A stretch of 64,000 nucleotides of DNA from sequence record MZ234031.1. One strand, written 5' to 3'. This DNA comes from Escherichia phage vB_EcoM-CHD94UKE2. The translations under genes were made by a program, and so were the position numbers. Of this stretch, positions 43,258 through 53,248 are shown piece by piece (position 1 is the first letter of the stretch; each line of letters begins with the position of its first letter). The notes beneath the pieces were generated by a model, which worked only from the letters and a program-made list of their open reading frames with translations, searched no databases and was not told the origin of the DNA.

Positions 43258-43515
43258 ATGAAAACTTTCAAAGAGTTTGCTACAAAAACTACTATCACTG
43301 AATCTTCCCACGGTATGGAAGTAAAGCTTGGAATGGCTTTAGCTGAAGCTGAGCGTCTTTTCTCTCGTATTAAAGAACTTGCTGCTGCGGTCGATCCTTC
43401 ATCTTTTAAAGGAGACCAAACTAAAGTTAAAGCACTTTTAGCATTATGCTCCGATGCAGGAGAAATTGCTAAAAATGGTTCTAAGATGAAGAAACGATTA
43501 GAAGATTTAAAATAA
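43258..43515 (+). CDS. internal-protein-like small protein with degenerate capsid-targeting leader
   Basis: 85 aa, MKTFKEFATKTTITE|SSH (ITE fits gp21 (I/L)xE cleavage motif); paralog of ORF 51409; preceded by early promoter stem-loop. Confidence 0.6.
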   Translation: MKTFKEFATKTTITESSHGMEVKLGMALAEAERLFSRIKELAAAVDPSSFKGDQTKVKALLALCSDAGEIAKNGSKMKKRLEDLK

Positions 43516-43586: not shown

Positions 43587-43820
43587 ATGAAAACTTACCA
43601 AGAATTTATTGCTGAAACTGCTGATGTAAAAGTTGAGTTTATTTACACTGGCAAGAAAGATAAAATGGGTGAAATGCCTCATGGAGTTCTTCGTGATGCA
43701 TTAGATAATTTCGGTCAACTCGCCGCAGAAGATTACGGTGATAAAATTGTTGTTACTGGTCCTGCTGCAGTTATTGAAAAATGGGCAGCAGAAAATAAAT
43801 CAATTTTTCGTAAAAAATAA
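43587..43820 (+). CDS. internal protein with canonical capsid-targeting sequence (IP)
   Basis: ATG 43587 (track ORF starts at upstream GTG); MKTYQEFIAE|TADVK..., 77 aa; preceded by early promoter. Confidence 0.7.
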   Translation: MKTYQEFIAETADVKVEFIYTGKKDKMGEMPHGVLRDALDNFGQLAAEDYGDKIVVTGPAAVIEKWAAENKSIFRKK

Positions 43821-44849: not shown

Positions 44850-44922
44850 TGGGAATTAGCCAAGTTGGTAAGGCACTGGATTTTGATTCCAGGATGCAAA
44901 GGTTCGAGTCCTTTATTCCCAG
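44850..44922 (+). tRNA. tRNA-Gln (anticodon UUG)
   Basis: cloverleaf read by hand: acceptor TGGGAAT/ATTCCCA, anticodon loop TTTTGAT, T-loop GGTTCGAGTCC. Confidence 0.85.
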
Positions 44923-44923
44923 C

Positions 44924-45010
44924 GCGAGAATGGCCAAATTGGTAAAGGCACAGCACTTAAAATGCTGCGGAATGATTTCCTTGTGGGTTCGAGTCCCACT
45001 TCTCGCACCA
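44924..45010 (+). tRNA. tRNA-Leu (anticodon UAA), type II with long variable arm, CCA encoded
   Basis: acceptor GCGAGAA/TTCTCGC, anticodon stem CAGCA/TGCTG loop CTTAAAA. Confidence 0.85.
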
Positions 45011-45015
45011 AATTT

Positions 45016-45089
<74 letters not shown>

Positions 45090-45099
45090 ATTTAATTTA

Positions 45100-45173
45100 C
45101 TCCGTGTAGCTCAGTTTGGTAGAGCGTCTGCTTTGGGAGCAGAATGTCGTAGGTTCAAATCCTGCCACGGAGA
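45100..45173 (+). tRNA. tRNA-Pro (anticodon UGG)
   Basis: acceptor CTCCGTG/CACGGAG, anticodon stem TCTGC/GCAGA loop TTTGGGA. Confidence 0.8.
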
Positions 45174-45175
45174 CT

Positions 45176-45265
45176 GGAGGCGTGGCAGAGTGGTTTAATG
45201 CACCGGTCTTGAAAACCGGCAGTCGCTCCGGCGACTCATAGGTTCAAATCCTATCGCCGCCGCCA
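45176..45265 (+). tRNA. tRNA-Ser (anticodon UGA), type II
   Basis: anticodon stem CCGGT... loop CTTGAAA, variable-arm hairpin GTCGC/GCGAC, T-loop GGTTCAAATCC, CCA encoded; acceptor position 3:70 reads A:G. Confidence 0.8.
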
Positions 45266-45270
45266 GTTTT

Positions 45271-45346
45271 GCTGATTTAGCTCAGTAGGTAGAGCAACTC
45301 ACTTGTAATGAGAAGGTCGGCGGTTCGATTCCGTCAATCAGCACCA
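45271..45346 (+). tRNA. tRNA-Thr (anticodon UGU)
   Basis: acceptor GCTGATT/AATCAGC, anticodon loop CTTGTAA, CCA encoded. Confidence 0.8.
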
Positions 45347-45347
45347 A

Positions 45348-45422
45348 GGCCCTGTAGCTGGAAGGTTCAAGCAAGCGACTCATAATCGCCAGATGGTGGT
45401 TCAATTCCACCCAGGGCCACCA
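45348..45422 (+). tRNA. tRNA-Ile (anticodon CAU, presumably lysidine-modified to read AUA as in T4)
   Basis: acceptor GGCCCTG/CAGGGCC, anticodon loop CTCATAA, CCA encoded. Confidence 0.75.
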
Positions 45423-45431
45423 AATTAATTT

Positions 45432-45518
45432 GGGGAGTTATCCCGTAGAGGTAGCGGTGTGGACTGTAAATCCATTGTCATTGCGACTCGGGTGGTTCGA
45501 CTCCACCATTCCCCACCA
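45432..45518 (+). tRNA. tRNA-Tyr-like (anticodon GUA), type II; D-arm atypical
   Basis: acceptor GGGGAGT/ATTCCCC (one G-U), anticodon stem GTGGA/TCCAT loop CTGTAAA, long variable arm, T-arm GGTGG-TTCGACT-CCACC, CCA encoded. Confidence 0.6.
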
Positions 45519-45522
45519 ATTT

Positions 45523-45597
45523 GGATGTGTAGCTCAATGGCAGAGCGATCGCCTGTTAAGCGATTGGTTATAGGTTCGAATCCTATCACGTCCGCCA
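45523..45597 (+). tRNA. tRNA-Asn (anticodon GUU)
   Basis: acceptor GGATGTG/CACGTCC, D-stem GCTC/GAGC, anticodon stem ATCGC/GCGAT loop CTGTTAA, CCA encoded. Confidence 0.8.
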
Positions 45598-45601
45598 AAT
45601 T

Positions 45602-45617
45602 TGTGACAACTGTCACA
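45602..45617. repeat. perfect palindrome TGTGACA-AC-TGTCACA in spacer between tRNA-Asn and tRNA-His
   Basis: read directly; 7-bp inverted repeat with 2-nt spacer. Confidence 0.7.
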
Positions 45618-45711
45618 TTAATATCTACTTGACGCGATTATAGGGGTTGAACTGATCACTCTTCTCTTAATTTCGTGTGAAGACATCTTGATTGTTGGAG
45701 TAGGTATTAAT

Positions 45712-45787
45712 GTGGCCGTAGTTCAGTTGGTAGAACTCGAGATTGTGATTCTCGTAGTCATGGGTTCGACTCCCATCGGTCACCCCA
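45712..45787 (+). tRNA. tRNA-His (anticodon GUG)
   Basis: acceptor GTGGCCG/CGGTCAC, D-stem GTTC/GAAC, anticodon stem CGAGA/TCTCG loop TTGTGAT, discriminator C, CCA encoded. Confidence 0.8.
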
Positions 45788-45791
45788 ATTA

Positions 45792-45867
45792 CGGGGCATA
45801 GCTCAGAAGGAAGAGCAAGGACCTTCTAAGTCCTAGGTCGTAGGTTCGATCCCTACTGCCTCGACCA
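45792..45867 (+). tRNA. tRNA-Arg (anticodon UCU)
   Basis: acceptor CGGGGCA/TGCCTCG, anticodon stem AGGAC/GTCCT loop CTTCTAA, CCA encoded. Confidence 0.85.
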
Positions 45868-45885: not shown

Positions 45886-46236
45886 ATGAAAGGTAATGTT
45901 TATTTAGTAGTTCATGATTTAACATTCTATTTTAATCATAATGATACTGTTATTTCTGAACGTGTAATTAATTTGCTTTATCAGCATGCAGATTATGTTT
46001 ATGTCGAAAACGAATATGGTCATTGGCAATTTCTCAAAAATCGTTCATTTGGTTTAGATGGTTACGAATATTTTGATCGTAAAGACCTTTTAGATACAAT
46101 TCCGTTATCTACACAATATCAAAATCATAAGTCTTTACATAAATGCCGGCTAATTCGAAATGCTGAATCCGCGTATGAAGCAATTGATTTGTGGCGTAAA
46201 CGCCGTGAACAGGTTGATGCTTTAAAAGAATACTAA
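45886..46236 (+). CDS. hypothetical protein
   Basis: 116 aa; ATG 45886 with GTGAGGAAAA RBS directly after tRNA-Arg. Confidence 0.65.
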   Translation: MKGNVYLVVHDLTFYFNHNDTVISERVINLLYQHADYVYVENEYGHWQFLKNRSFGLDGYEYFDRKDLLDTIPLSTQYQNHKSLHKCRLIRNAESAYEAIDLWRKRREQVDALKEY

Positions 46237-46571
46237 GAAACCGGGTCGCTACCGGTAAGTCGTCGGACTGATGTTCCCTGGAGTATAGTTTCTCCCACAG
46301 TTTTACTGTGTTCTGATTCTTTACTATCACAGCAGAAACGGCGCACAGAATTATCGATTCGAGGAAATATCTTTGCCGTAAGCCGAGTAGCGTTTTTGAC
46401 GGAACGTTCGGATATGGTCGAGATATGGCCTTTTAAAAATATTAAGTAGCGTCAACTGCTTAATAACCGGGTTCGAATCCCGGCGTTTCGTACAAACACT
46501 TGCCTTAGCAGGTGGAACCCCGACAAGGTTGCCGCAAGGCTTAGCCCCGACCGAAAGGTTGGGGCTTTTTA
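46237..46571 (+). ncRNA. candidate structured non-coding RNA region with tRNA-like T-arm motif, ending in strong intrinsic terminator
   Basis: about 330 nt without plausible ORF; GC-richer than surroundings; CCGGGTTCGAATCCCGG T-arm-like element; terminator hairpin 46543-46566 plus T5. Confidence 0.3.
46543..46571 (+). terminator. strong intrinsic terminator ending the non-coding region
   Basis: AGCCCCGACC-GAAA-GGTTGGGGCT (10-bp stem, GNRA loop) plus TTTTT. Confidence 0.75.
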
Positions 46572-46660
46572 GTTTGAATCACATAGAGAATGCTGTTACG
46601 GATAATAACAAAGTAATAAATAATTAATAACCAACCGATAAATTATTTCAAGGATTTTAA

Positions 46661-47224
46661 ATGAAAACCTATGCCGAGTTTTTAACCGAAGCAGCAAAAT
46701 TACCATCTGAAGCAGATCTTACTAAAGTATTCTTCCACTTGGACCCAAAAGACCGCGGCGATTTTCTTAAGTGGAAAGCTAAAGCTATTGAAATGTATAA
46801 CATTGATAATAGTTCTTTTACGATGAGTCAAGAAAATAAATTCAATAAAGCATTTTTCAAAATTTCTAAGAAACTGGCATCTGGCGCTCAGGTTCCTAAA
46901 TCTGCCTTAGCTACTCCTGAACGTGCACCTGTCAAAATTTCTAAGAATATGTTCGACACTAAAAAATACGTTAATGCTTTGAATAAAGCTCTTGATGCAT
47001 TGGATGATGCAAAGAAGGCAGCCCGTGATCTTCAAGATGTGTACACCGATTTTGATCGTAAAACTAAAGGTTCTATTTCAAATAGCGAACGCAATAGTGT
47101 AAGTGTTTATTCTGATAGTCTTGATGTTCTTGGCGATGCGTATACTGAAATTAAAAATCGTATTAACACCGCATCTAAGCTAAAAGCTGCCGCAGAAGCT
47201 ATAATAACTAAACTAGATAAATAA
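46661..47224 (+). CDS. internal-protein-like protein with capsid-targeting leader (187 aa)
   Basis: MKTYAEFLTE|AAKLPSEADL...; LTE fits gp21 cleavage motif; terminator follows. Confidence 0.7.
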   Translation: MKTYAEFLTEAAKLPSEADLTKVFFHLDPKDRGDFLKWKAKAIEMYNIDNSSFTMSQENKFNKAFFKISKKLASGAQVPKSALATPERAPVKISKNMFDTKKYVNALNKALDALDDAKKAARDLQDVYTDFDRKTKGSISNSERNSVSVYSDSLDVLGDAYTEIKNRINTASKLKAAAEAIITKLDK

Positions 47225-47232
47225 TTTTAAAT

Positions 47233-47256
47233 CCCTATCTAAATGATAGGGTTTTT
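47233..47256 (+). terminator. intrinsic terminator after ORF 46661
   Basis: CCCTATC-TAAAT-GATAGGG plus TTTTT. Confidence 0.7.
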
Positions 47257-47391
47257 AGTATCTAGGCCTTTCTGGACCTCTCTAGGCATCATTTAGTTTC
47301 TACCCTTTATAATATATATTATCCTATCCTTTAATTGCCCCTCCCTGCCCTAGAATTCCCTAAAACTTTTCAAAAATTTTTTCACAAAACT

Positions 47392-47421
47392 GTTTACATC
47401 CCTGTTCTTCCATGGTACTAT
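47392..47421 (+). promoter_or_regulatory. early promoter
   Basis: A/T UP-like tract CAAAAATTTTTTCACAAAAC, GTTTAC, 17-nt spacer, TACTAT. Confidence 0.7.
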
Positions 47422-47464
47422 ATCAATATCAACTACTGATACAGAAAACAACTTGGAGAATAAA

Positions 47465-50887: not shown

Positions 50888-51690
<803 letters not shown>

Positions 51691-51691
51691 T

Positions 51692-51721
51692 GTTTACTTC
51701 CTCCAAGTACTTTGATACTAT
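51692..51721 (+). promoter_or_regulatory. early promoter upstream of denV
   Basis: GTTTAC 51692-51697, TACTAT 51716-51721, 17-nt spacing. Confidence 0.7.
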
Positions 51722-51748
51722 ACATTCATCAACTACTTGGAGGAAATT

Positions 51749-52162
51749 ATGACTCGTATCAATTTAACACTTGTTTCTGAACTGACCGACCAACATCTTA
51801 TGGCTGAGTATCGTGAATTACCACGCGTATTTGGTGCAGTCCGTAAACATGTTCAAAACGGTAAACGTGTAAAGGATTTTAAAATCTCTCCAACATTTAT
51901 CTTAGGCACAGGTCACGTAACATTCTTTTATGACAAACTCGAATTTTTACGTTTACGTCAAATCGAGCTAATCGCTGAATGCTTGAAACGTGGTTTCAAA
52001 ATCAAGGACACGACTGTCCAGGATATTTCCGACATCCCTGTCGAATTTCGTAATAATTATGTCCCGTCCGAAGCGTCCATTGCGATAAGTCAAGCTCGCT
52101 TAGATGAAAAAATTGCTCAACGCCCTACTTGGTACAAATACTATGGTAAATCAATTTACTAA
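51749..52162 (+). CDS. denV: endonuclease V (pyrimidine dimer DNA glycosylase)
   Basis: track ORF starts at TTG 51737; ATG 51749 after GGAGGAAA; [29 protein letters not shown]... matches T4 EndoV. Confidence 0.95.
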
Positions 52163-52168
52163 GGAAAA

Positions 52169-52429
52169 ATGAAAATGTATCAAGAATTTATCGCTGAAGC
52201 AGATGCCAAAGGCCCCAAATTTAAAGTTAAAGCTTTCGTTGGTGATGCCGAAGATTTTGGCTCATTAAAACGTAATGGGTATTTTTTCTTAGGTGGTGAT
52301 GGTAAAGAAATCAACACCTATGCAAAACGTAGTGAAATTGCTTATGTTGCTGCAAGTCCTAAAGTAGATGTTGACGATATTGGATACGATTTTAACAACT
52401 TCGGAATTATTTCTGGCGGTGAAGCTTAA
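52169..52429 (+). CDS. internal protein with capsid-targeting sequence (ipII-like size)
   Basis: MKMYQEFIAE|ADAKGPKF..., 86 aa. Confidence 0.75.
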   Translation: MKMYQEFIAEADAKGPKFKVKAFVGDAEDFGSLKRNGYFFLGGDGKEINTYAKRSEIAYVAASPKVDVDDIGYDFNNFGIISGGEA

Positions 52430-52432
52430 ACG

Positions 52433-52462
52433 GTTTACGCTTAAGTATTAATATGGTATAAT
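52433..52462 (+). promoter_or_regulatory. early promoter upstream of ipIII-like gene
   Basis: GTTTAC 52433-52438, TGGTATAAT -10 at 52457-52462. Confidence 0.65.
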
Positions 52463-52492
52463 TACTCTATCAAAACAAACAAGGAAACAAAA

Positions 52493-53071
52493 ATGAAAAC
52501 ATATAAAGAATTTATTGCTGAAGCTTCTGTAGTAAAGGCCAAAGGCATTAATAAGGACGAGTGGAACTATCGTGGTGGAAACGGCTTTGACCCTAAAACA
52601 GCCCCTATTGAACGATACTTAGCTACAAAAGCTTCCGATTTTAAAGCTTTCGCTTGGGAAGGACTTCGCTGGCGTACCGATTTAAATATTGAAGTTGACG
52701 GACTTAAATTTGCTCATATTGAAGATGTTGTTGCTAGTAACTTAGACGCAGCTTTTGTTAAAGCCGACAGTGATCTTCGTCGCTGGAATTTAAAACTGTT
52801 CTCTAAACAAAAAGGCCCGAAGTTTGTGCCTAAAGCCGGTAAATGGGTCATTGATAATAAATTAGCTAAGGCTGTCAACTACGCTGGTCTTGAATTCGCC
52901 AAGCACAAATCATCATGGAAAGGTCTTGATGCAATGGCTTTCCGTAAAGAATTTGCCGATGTTATGGCTAAAGGCGGCTTTAAGGCAGAAATAGATACCT
53001 CTAAAGGTACGTTTAAGGACGCTAATGTTCAGTACGCTTACGCCGTTGCTAATGCAGCCCGTGGTAATTAA
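52493..53071 (+). CDS. internal protein with capsid-targeting sequence (ipIII-like size)
   Basis: MKTYKEFIAE|ASVVKAKG..., 192 aa (T4 IPIII about 194 aa); own early promoter. Confidence 0.8.
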   Translation: MKTYKEFIAEASVVKAKGINKDEWNYRGGNGFDPKTAPIERYLATKASDFKAFAWEGLRWRTDLNIEVDGLKFAHIEDVVASNLDAAFVKADSDLRRWNLKLFSKQKGPKFVPKAGKWVIDNKLAKAVNYAGLEFAKHKSSWKGLDAMAFRKEFADVMAKGGFKAEIDTSKGTFKDANVQYAYAVANAARGN

Positions 53072-53248
53072 TAAGGCCGATACTTAGGCCTATTTACATT
53101 CAAATAACATGGGAACAACCTGGACCTCATGATTCTATGAGGGATTCCCGCCAACCTGTAATAAGGTCGAGCCCAAGTGCGGTAATGGGTAAATACAGAA
53201 ATGGACAATTCACGCGCCATGGAATGGCCCAAATTTAGAGAGAATAAA

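Follow-up and report, generated by a model that had tools for sequence, protein, structure and literature searches.

A candidate third internal-protein locus in T4-like phages: a conserved gene with a predicted capsid-targeting leader between rnaC and e.8

Between 2022 and 2025 the injected internal proteins of T-even phages, once regarded as curiosities, came to be recognised as a class of highly specific anti-restriction factors. IPI, IPII and IPIII each inhibit a distinct GmrSD type IV restriction enzyme (PMC12373910), with IPIII acting on the GmrSD of ECOR17 (PMC12373910; eLife/bioRxiv IPIII work), and Bas37_0260 is an inhibitor of McrBC (2025 preprint). For IPIII, the host-specific plating defect of a deletion mutant was rescued when the host itself made a CTS-less form of the protein. 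The internal proteins with established roles, four in number, are all specific inhibitors of modification-dependent restriction systems. The first 10 residues of IPIII, its capsid-targeting sequence (CTS), are enough to bring about incorporation into the core of the prohead. Residues 4 and 7 are the main targeting determinants, a rule derived from amber-suppression analysis, and residues 8 and 10 govern processing, in which gp21 cuts after the Glu of L/I-x-E (PMC9026906). The CTS can also direct unrelated proteins, GFP and nucleases among them, into the capsid (PMC9026906). Two ip loci have been recognised, 57B-trna.4 and e-denV-vs.8 (PMC12373910), and this location is a habit of internal proteins, with no mechanistic requirement behind it.

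Here we describe ORF 46661, a gene that lies between rnaC and e.8, outside both recognised ip loci, in a 64,000-nucleotide stretch of Escherichia phage vB_EcoM-CHD94UKE2 (MZ234031.1; hereafter the window). The region from 46200 to 47450 is 100% identical to Escherichia phage vB_EcoM-G3F7 (Tequatrovirus) and matches 766 phage records, nearly all of them T4-like phages of enterobacteria. A first-pass annotation had suggested an additional injected protein at a third locus here; the ORF does stand apart from the other ip-type ORFs of the window, which are found at the ipI locus (43258 and 43587) and around denV (51409, 52169 and 52493). Sequence comparison supports assigning ORF 46661, and the whole conserved family to which it belongs (phrog_2280), to an established class, the T-even internal proteins with a CTS, as members that had gone unannotated. 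With this family the ip loci would number three, the new one being widely occupied, and it supplies orphan candidates in hundreds of therapeutic-type T4-like phages, in all of which they are annotated "hypothetical protein".

The coding sequence and its leader

ORF 46661 is a true gene and evolves under purifying selection. It starts with ATG behind a ribosome-binding site (Table 1), and comparison with a 98%-identical copy in phage KarlGJung gives 19 nucleotide differences and a dN/dS of 0.065, a low ratio that marks it as a real coding sequence under selection. The protein matches phrog_2280, a family listed as being of "unknown function", with an E value of 1.4e-53 over residues 1-181 and profile positions 1-178 of 178.

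Table 1. Features of the rnaC/e.8 locus in the window and frameshifted copies in other genomes (a slash marks the putative gp21 cut)
Feature	Position	Strand	Basis or detail
rnaD/rnaC-like stable RNA region, left border	46236-46570	+	90.6% identical to T4 71168-70830
Intrinsic terminator of the tRNA/rnaC unit	46543-46576	+	terminator scan (46543-46566): 10-bp stem, 7 GC pairs, T-run
Cassette with no T4 counterpart, 678 bp	46571-47248	+	leader region, ORF, own terminator
Late-promoter-like element AATAAATA, ATAAATA core	46615-46622	+	45 nt 5' of ATG
Ribosome-binding site AAGGA	46650-46654	+	6 nt 5' of ATG, read from sequence
CDS, phrog_2280 member	46661-47224	+	187 aa; PHROG match, 164 records, dN/dS
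Predicted capsid-targeting sequence, codons 1-10, MKTYAEFLTE	46661-46690	+	putative gp21 site L-T-E/A
Predicted mature protein, 177 aa	46691-47221	+	helical N-domain, linker, three-helix C-domain
Intrinsic terminator of the cassette	47233-47256	+	terminator scan (47233-47251); after stop codon
Early sigma-70-type promoter of e.8, TTTACA-17-TACTAT	47393-47421	+	right border; region 95% identical to T4
Frameshifted copy, RB69ORF149c+148c	L010 1501-2063		
Frameshifted copy, G29_00139+00138	L015 201-763		
Frameshifted copy, two OE5505 ORFs	L014 201-763		

Compared with the T4 CTS, MKTYQEFIAE, the leader MKTYAEFLTE retains Y4, F7, L8 (where L or I is allowed) and E10. The targeting positions, Tyr4 and Phe7, are identical to those of T4 IPIII, and L8-T9-E10/A11 is the sole [LI]-x-E motif in the protein. 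In a six-frame translation of the 64-kb window, a regular expression for the leader motif found exactly five matches (43587, 46661, 51409, 52169 and 52493), every one of them on the + strand and at the start of an ip-type ORF, against a chance expectation of ~0.01 by a back-of-envelope estimate. The leader of ORF 46661 is therefore not a chance match.

The first-pass description of the remainder as a Lys/Ala-rich body of 177 residues is borne out. The predicted mature part has a mass of 19.7 kDa, a pI of 9.46 and contents of 14.7% Lys and 13.0% Ala; a Pro/Ala/Lys linker at approximately residues 74-100 leads into a C-domain (residues 101-186) with three helices. An AlphaFold2 (AF2) model has a mean pLDDT of 80.5, with residues 1-12 below 50, which predicts a disordered leader on an unremarkable all-helical bundle. 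A model that AF2 built from the single sequence was poor (pLDDT 63), and a BFVD fold search with it yielded only family members and a single weak match, from a Yersinia phage. Sequence searches of Pfam, NCBIfam and the PDB found no meaningful relatives and no recognisable catalytic domain.

The T4 ipIII position is taken by ORF 52493 (93% nucleotide identity to T4 ipIII), as had been noted. Pairwise alignment of the two proteins covers residues 1-12 only, in agreement with the earlier statement that they are not recognisably similar, and homology to IPIII was rejected on this ground. What ORF 46661 shares with IPIII (window orthologue 52493-53071) is a ten-residue CTS that ends in [IL]-x-E and is followed by Ala, a comparable size (187 versus 192 aa, with mature proteins of 177 versus 182 aa and pI values of 9.46 versus 9.65) and a place in a variable region, probably as an accessory gene. 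IPIII differs in its locus, in its early-type promoter, where ORF 46661 has a late-type core and terminator insulation, and in having an established target, the GmrSD of ECOR17 (PMC12373910). IPI and IPII, which undergo CTS-directed packaging, gp21 processing and injection and inhibit GmrSD variants, resemble ORF 46661 in the CTS and the putative gp21 motif, but they are much smaller and have unrelated sequences and loci; moreover, IPI has a solved alpha/beta fold, whereas the ORF 46661 protein is predicted to be all-helical. Outside the leader, no homology was found to IPI, IPII, IPIII or Bas37_0260.

Bas37_0260 offers a further parallel: in a T4 relative, a small protein that is otherwise novel carries a CTS leader and acts as a specific inhibitor of type IV restriction, so unannotated ORFs of this kind can have such a function. 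It differs in lying at the ipI locus, in its length of 77 aa and unrelated body, in having a function shown by deletion and in bearing transposon insertions at 15 of 15 sites in the reference library. The window itself carries an ORF 100% identical to Bas37_0260 (43587-43820, +; 77 aa, MKTYQEFIAE), for which the matching records seen say hypothetical. Two further window ORFs, 43258-43515 (+) and 51409-51690 (+), encode paralogous small ip-type proteins with phrog_3499-like bodies; the former has a variant leader, MKTFKEFATK...TITE, that lacks Glu10 and has its first L/I-x-E at residues 13-15. The ip/denV locus (51400-53100) is rearranged, with the order e, 93-aa ip, denV, 86-aa ip, ipIII and vs.8 in the window and e, ipIII, ipII and denV in T4.

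Packaged and injected effectors of a different kind are T4 Alt and, as a candidate, an ART-PolyVal protein on the metagenomic contig L004; these are enzymes (ADP-ribosyltransferases), whereas ORF 46661 has no recognisable catalytic domain. The contig ORF (2092-2526, +) lies directly 3' of P0013, a remote relative of ORF 46661 described below. Its leader, MITFKQFLNE, is of the same lineage-specific type as that of P0013 (MITFNEFLNE) and is fused to the ART-PolyVal domain (PF18760, E 1.9e-11), making it a candidate CTS-packaged enzyme.

Distribution and variation of the family

By tblastn at a threshold of at least 85% identity, the 187-aa gene is present in 164 of the 767 matching phage records and missing from the other ~600; all 164 copies are annotated "hypothetical" (for example, RB14ncORF136c and Shfl2p135). 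When 5.8 billion proteins were searched with a word index, nothing but near-identical sequences came back, and an exhaustive phmmer search of 1.8 billion representatives added a single remote relative, P0013 (204 aa, 31% identity). With P0013 as a bridge, tblastn and profile searches extended the family to Karamvirus, Marfavirus, Mosigvirus, phage EcS1 and others; BLASTP also confirmed remote members, and phrog_2280 is matched as well by the 157-aa RB32ORF133c type, JS09_035, KMB19 and P0013. Members are built alike: the N-domain is conserved, the Pro/Ala/Lys linker varies in length, and the C-domain is one of two alternative types.

The position of these genes is conserved. Members in Tequatrovirus, Mosigvirus, Karamvirus and Marfavirus occupy the same interval from the tRNAs or rnaC to e.8, past tRNA-Arg and flanked by terminators: in RB69, JS09, ST0, KMB19, Marfa and contig L004 the member follows tRNAs or an rnaC-like terminator, and e.8 or an e.8-sized gene, annotated as e.8 in RB69, lies downstream where present. 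A recent one-off insertion was rejected as an explanation because homologues are syntenic in other genera. This refines the first-pass view: the gene is no oddity of one phage.

To survey the state of the locus we sampled 40 evenly spaced Tequatrovirus records in which both flanks were retained. Three of the 40 held the 187-aa gene alone, 10 held the 187-aa and 157-aa genes together, 22 held only an insert of ~555 bp, which matches the 157-aa cassette in size (as RB32 confirmed), and five (T4, T2, RB55, RB7 and one more) were empty. At least one cassette was accordingly present at the rnaC/e.8 site in ~88% of the sampled genomes, with T4 and T2 among the exceptions.

The 157-aa RB32ORF133c-type protein (bas37_0244 in Bas37) is the other cassette found at this site and itself matches phrog_2280 (E 6.8e-60). 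Like ORF 46661 it has a CTS-like leader (MKSYAQFLNE/AVLNE/A), the element TATAAATA upstream and flanking terminators, and its linker and C-domain are remotely homologous to those of ORF 46661 (hhalign probability 93%, E 2.9e-7). It differs in that BLASTP matches the leader alone, in its far wider spread (512 records) and in being non-essential in a transposon screen (HIDEN-SEQ), with insertions at 29 of 34 sites.

Every full-length family member retains the leader M-x-x-[YF]-x-[EDQ]-[FI]-[IL]-x-E, as exemplified by MKTYAEFLTE, MKSYAQFLNE, MYTFNEFLAE, MLNFKEFIAE, MLKFKDILTE and MITFNEFLNE, with Y or F at position 4 and F or I at position 7. In a 36-sequence alignment of phrog_2280, E10 is nearly invariant and overall identity to the query is 16-28%; body identity drops to 18-28%, or 20-30% for the remote homologues of other genera. 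Many members have a second I/V-x-E/AG site a few residues past the leader. A relaxed motif picked out nothing else in JS09 and KMB19 except other short ORFs in the neighbouring ip loci, which in JS09 are annotated as internal proteins or Ip10-like.

Some copies are broken. Single-base frameshifts interrupt the 187-aa gene in RB69, G29 and OE5505, at a different position in each; either true pseudogenes or sequencing errors in homopolymers would explain them. In CT01 (L005 901-1389) a 25-codon in-frame deletion, apparently between two KISK-coding repeats, has removed linker sequence, and the linker therefore looks dispensable. The sole Jiaodavirus homologue examined, that of VMC01, is truncated to 58 aa. 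A literature search for virion proteomics, N-terminal sequencing or injection data on phrog_2280 members found none; among papers on carrier phages, the fPS-65 paper contains no mass spectrometry, and a search on rnaC, e.8 and internal proteins gave only unrelated papers. For the Jiaodavirus phages VMC03/04, mass spectrometry of purified virions found abundant internal proteins from the e locus only and hypothetical proteins all at low counts.

Borders and promoter of the locus

The window runs from 57B through ip genes, trna.4-.2, the tRNA cluster, rnaD/rnaC and e.8 through e.2 to nudE, e, the ip genes with denV, and vs.8, and its + strand corresponds to the direction of early transcription in T4. 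The gene had been placed between a non-coding region and a terminator, and both borders can now be named. On the left is an rnaD/rnaC-like region whose T4 counterpart encodes the stable species 1 and 2 RNAs, and in which an Rfam scan found no family at gathering score; on the right, the terminator detected by our scan is also annotated as such in the OE5505 and G29 records. A BLASTN comparison of the window with T4 put the cassette flanks at T4 positions 70830 and 70838 with nothing between them aligning, and T4 has 284 bp of intergenic DNA between rnaC and e.8.

Several features suggest that ORF 46661 constitutes its own small transcription unit. The terminator of the tRNA/rnaC unit would insulate it from upstream early transcription, and an early sigma-70 promoter of its own was rejected, the sole candidate (46578-46606) matching at 9 of 12 positions; promoter-like matches near the ORF were not above those in shuffled sequence. 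The late-promoter-like element of the window, AATAAATA, departs from the late-promoter consensus, TATAAATA. Its ATAAATA core was rejected as stand-alone evidence, since the window shows no enrichment of this heptamer (35 observed versus 37 expected), and it becomes meaningful only through conservation across lineages: the core lies 32-45 nt 5' of the ATG in six of six family lineages examined, at a background chance of ~0.013 per 60-nt zone. The upstream element is TATAAATA in the RB32-type, JS09 and KMB19 genes, CATAAATA in Marfa and GATAAATA in contig L004. The ip genes 43258, 43587 and 52493 lie behind early-type promoters; ORF 46661 is apparently late-only.

The junctions of the 187-aa cassette share just ~8 bp (TTTTTAGT). 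On either side of the 157-aa cassette stands a copy of the rnaC terminator, a duplication seen in KarlGJung (L002 600-1200) and RB32 (L003 600-1260) and noted in the RB32 record as a 34-bp imperfect direct repeat. These terminator repeats suggest that cassettes may be gained and lost through recombination at terminator sequences. Upstream, the window (44850-45867 and 45886-46236) has eleven tRNA genes versus eight in T4; the T4 segB homing endonuclease is replaced by the extra tRNAs and a 116-aa ORF (phrog_3355) at the position of RB69ORF150c.

A packaged internal protein and the competing readings

We favour, at a probability of roughly 65%, the reading that ORF 46661 encodes the precursor of a T-even-type internal protein that is packaged in the head and injected. 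A third ip locus encoding a gp21-processed, injected and probably anti-defence protein is the likeliest account of the features read from the sequence. A conserved coding sequence, in what appears to be its own small unit bounded by two terminators and headed by a late-promoter-like ATAAATA core, would be expressed late. Its N-terminus keeps the residues used by IPIII for incorporation into the prohead core (4 and 7) and for gp21 processing (8 and 10), and the 10-residue leader would bind the scaffolding core and be cut by gp21 after Glu10 (LTE/A), leaving AAKLPSEADLTK as the predicted N-terminus. The basic, Lys/Ala-rich helical product of 19.7 kDa would then remain with the packaged DNA and enter the cell alongside it. 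As the CTS packages even unrelated proteins, we infer that a native late-expressed carrier is packaged and trimmed, which by this analogy is very likely for the ORF 46661 protein. Inside the host, again by analogy with the known internal proteins, it may neutralise a nuclease or other first-line defence. Inhibition of type IV restriction is a candidate role proposed purely by that analogy; the conserved N-domain and interchangeable C-domains fit an adaptor-plus-specificity-module design. Points that speak against the internal-protein reading are the Jiaodavirus virion data, the non-consensus promoter element of the window, the contrast with the early-type promoters of ip genes 43258, 43587 and 52493, and the "Essential" call on the Bas37 orthologue discussed below.

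An anti-defence role is thus the one we favour by comparison with known internal proteins, and its main rival is a physical association with DNA, in which the protein would be packaged but would serve to neutralise DNA charge or to aid packaging or ejection, a role already discussed for the T4 internal proteins in bulk. We consider this unlikely. In its favour, the protein is basic (pI 9.46, 14.7% Lys), solid-state NMR has placed internal-protein lysines in contact with DNA phosphates (PMC3012670), the predicted fold is just an unremarkable helical bundle, and synteny and conservation across genera exceed what would be expected of a strain-specific inhibitor. Against it, the gene is missing from T4, T2 and most Tequatrovirus and frameshifted in three deposited genomes, the C-domain swaps among family members look more like arms-race modularity, and all four internal proteins of established function are defence inhibitors. 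The least probable of the readings considered takes the leader to be an inherited relic, or a translation-initiation region spread by recombination, on a late cytoplasmic protein that is never packaged. The first 30 nt of ip genes do share DNA similarity able to mediate recombination, and short BLASTN matches in the leader region connect ip loci, but the leader is retained at the protein level in homologues that are unalignable as DNA (MLNFKEFIAE, MLKFKDILTE, MYTFNEFLAE and MITFNEFLNE), its conservation coincides with functional positions 4, 7, 8 and 10, and ten CTS residues suffice to package unrelated proteins (PMC9026906).

The patchy distribution (164 of 767 records) and the frameshifted copies point to an accessory character, yet its 98%-identical orthologue in Bas37, bas37_0243, was called "Essential" by HIDEN-SEQ, with insertions at 1 of 48 TA sites (10.1101/2025.11.20.689424). 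Its neighbours 0240-0242, 0244 and 0245 were saturated, T4 ipI, ipII and ipIII received no such call, and the preprint contains no discussion of bas37_0243 and reports an input library for T4 alone (10.1101/2025.11.20.689424). On this evidence the gene might be truly or nearly essential to its carriers, by countering a factor of K-12 or of the phage's own genome or by acting in head assembly, a proposition we find improbable. Both hoc and inh are late head genes, and hoc, inh, segE and uvsW are all late-region genes. The same screen scored these four essential in T4 and Bas37 though they are dispensable, discrepancies listed by the authors themselves (10.1101/2025.11.20.689424), and we rejected the call at face value because bas37_0243 shares their class.

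We infer that units without early transcription fail to express the transposon-borne anti-CRISPR in time. The hoc/inh pattern, taken with the apparent late-only profile of the cassette, therefore points to a position effect, and the call on bas37_0243 is probably an artefact, one that is itself consistent with late-only expression. One observation does not fit: bas37_0244 has the first copy of the rnaC terminator in front of it, yet it was well hit (29 of 34 sites). Essentiality is further opposed by the ~600 related phages that have no copy of the gene and by the frameshifts in RB69, G29 and OE5505 and the linker deletion in CT01, whose carriers survive without an intact copy; the frameshifts, being independent, would indicate that carriers tolerate the loss, with sequencing error as a possible qualification. 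A bolder proposal, in our judgement a long shot of the same order as essentiality, is that no other internal-protein family of the Tevenvirinae is as broadly conserved as phrog_2280, with its fixed third ip locus after the tRNA/rnaC cluster, conserved N-domain, exchangeable C-domains and late-only expression, and that the "Essential" call in Bas37 is real on K-12. The family would then have escaped recognition because T4 and T2 lost it, and a packaged, injected protein would be indispensable to a T-even phage on E. coli K-12.

If the call is instead an artefact, it is probably a systematic one in a new phage Tn-seq method, by which late-only units are scored essential. Other "essential" calls on accessory genes in the HIDEN-SEQ data may share this position effect.
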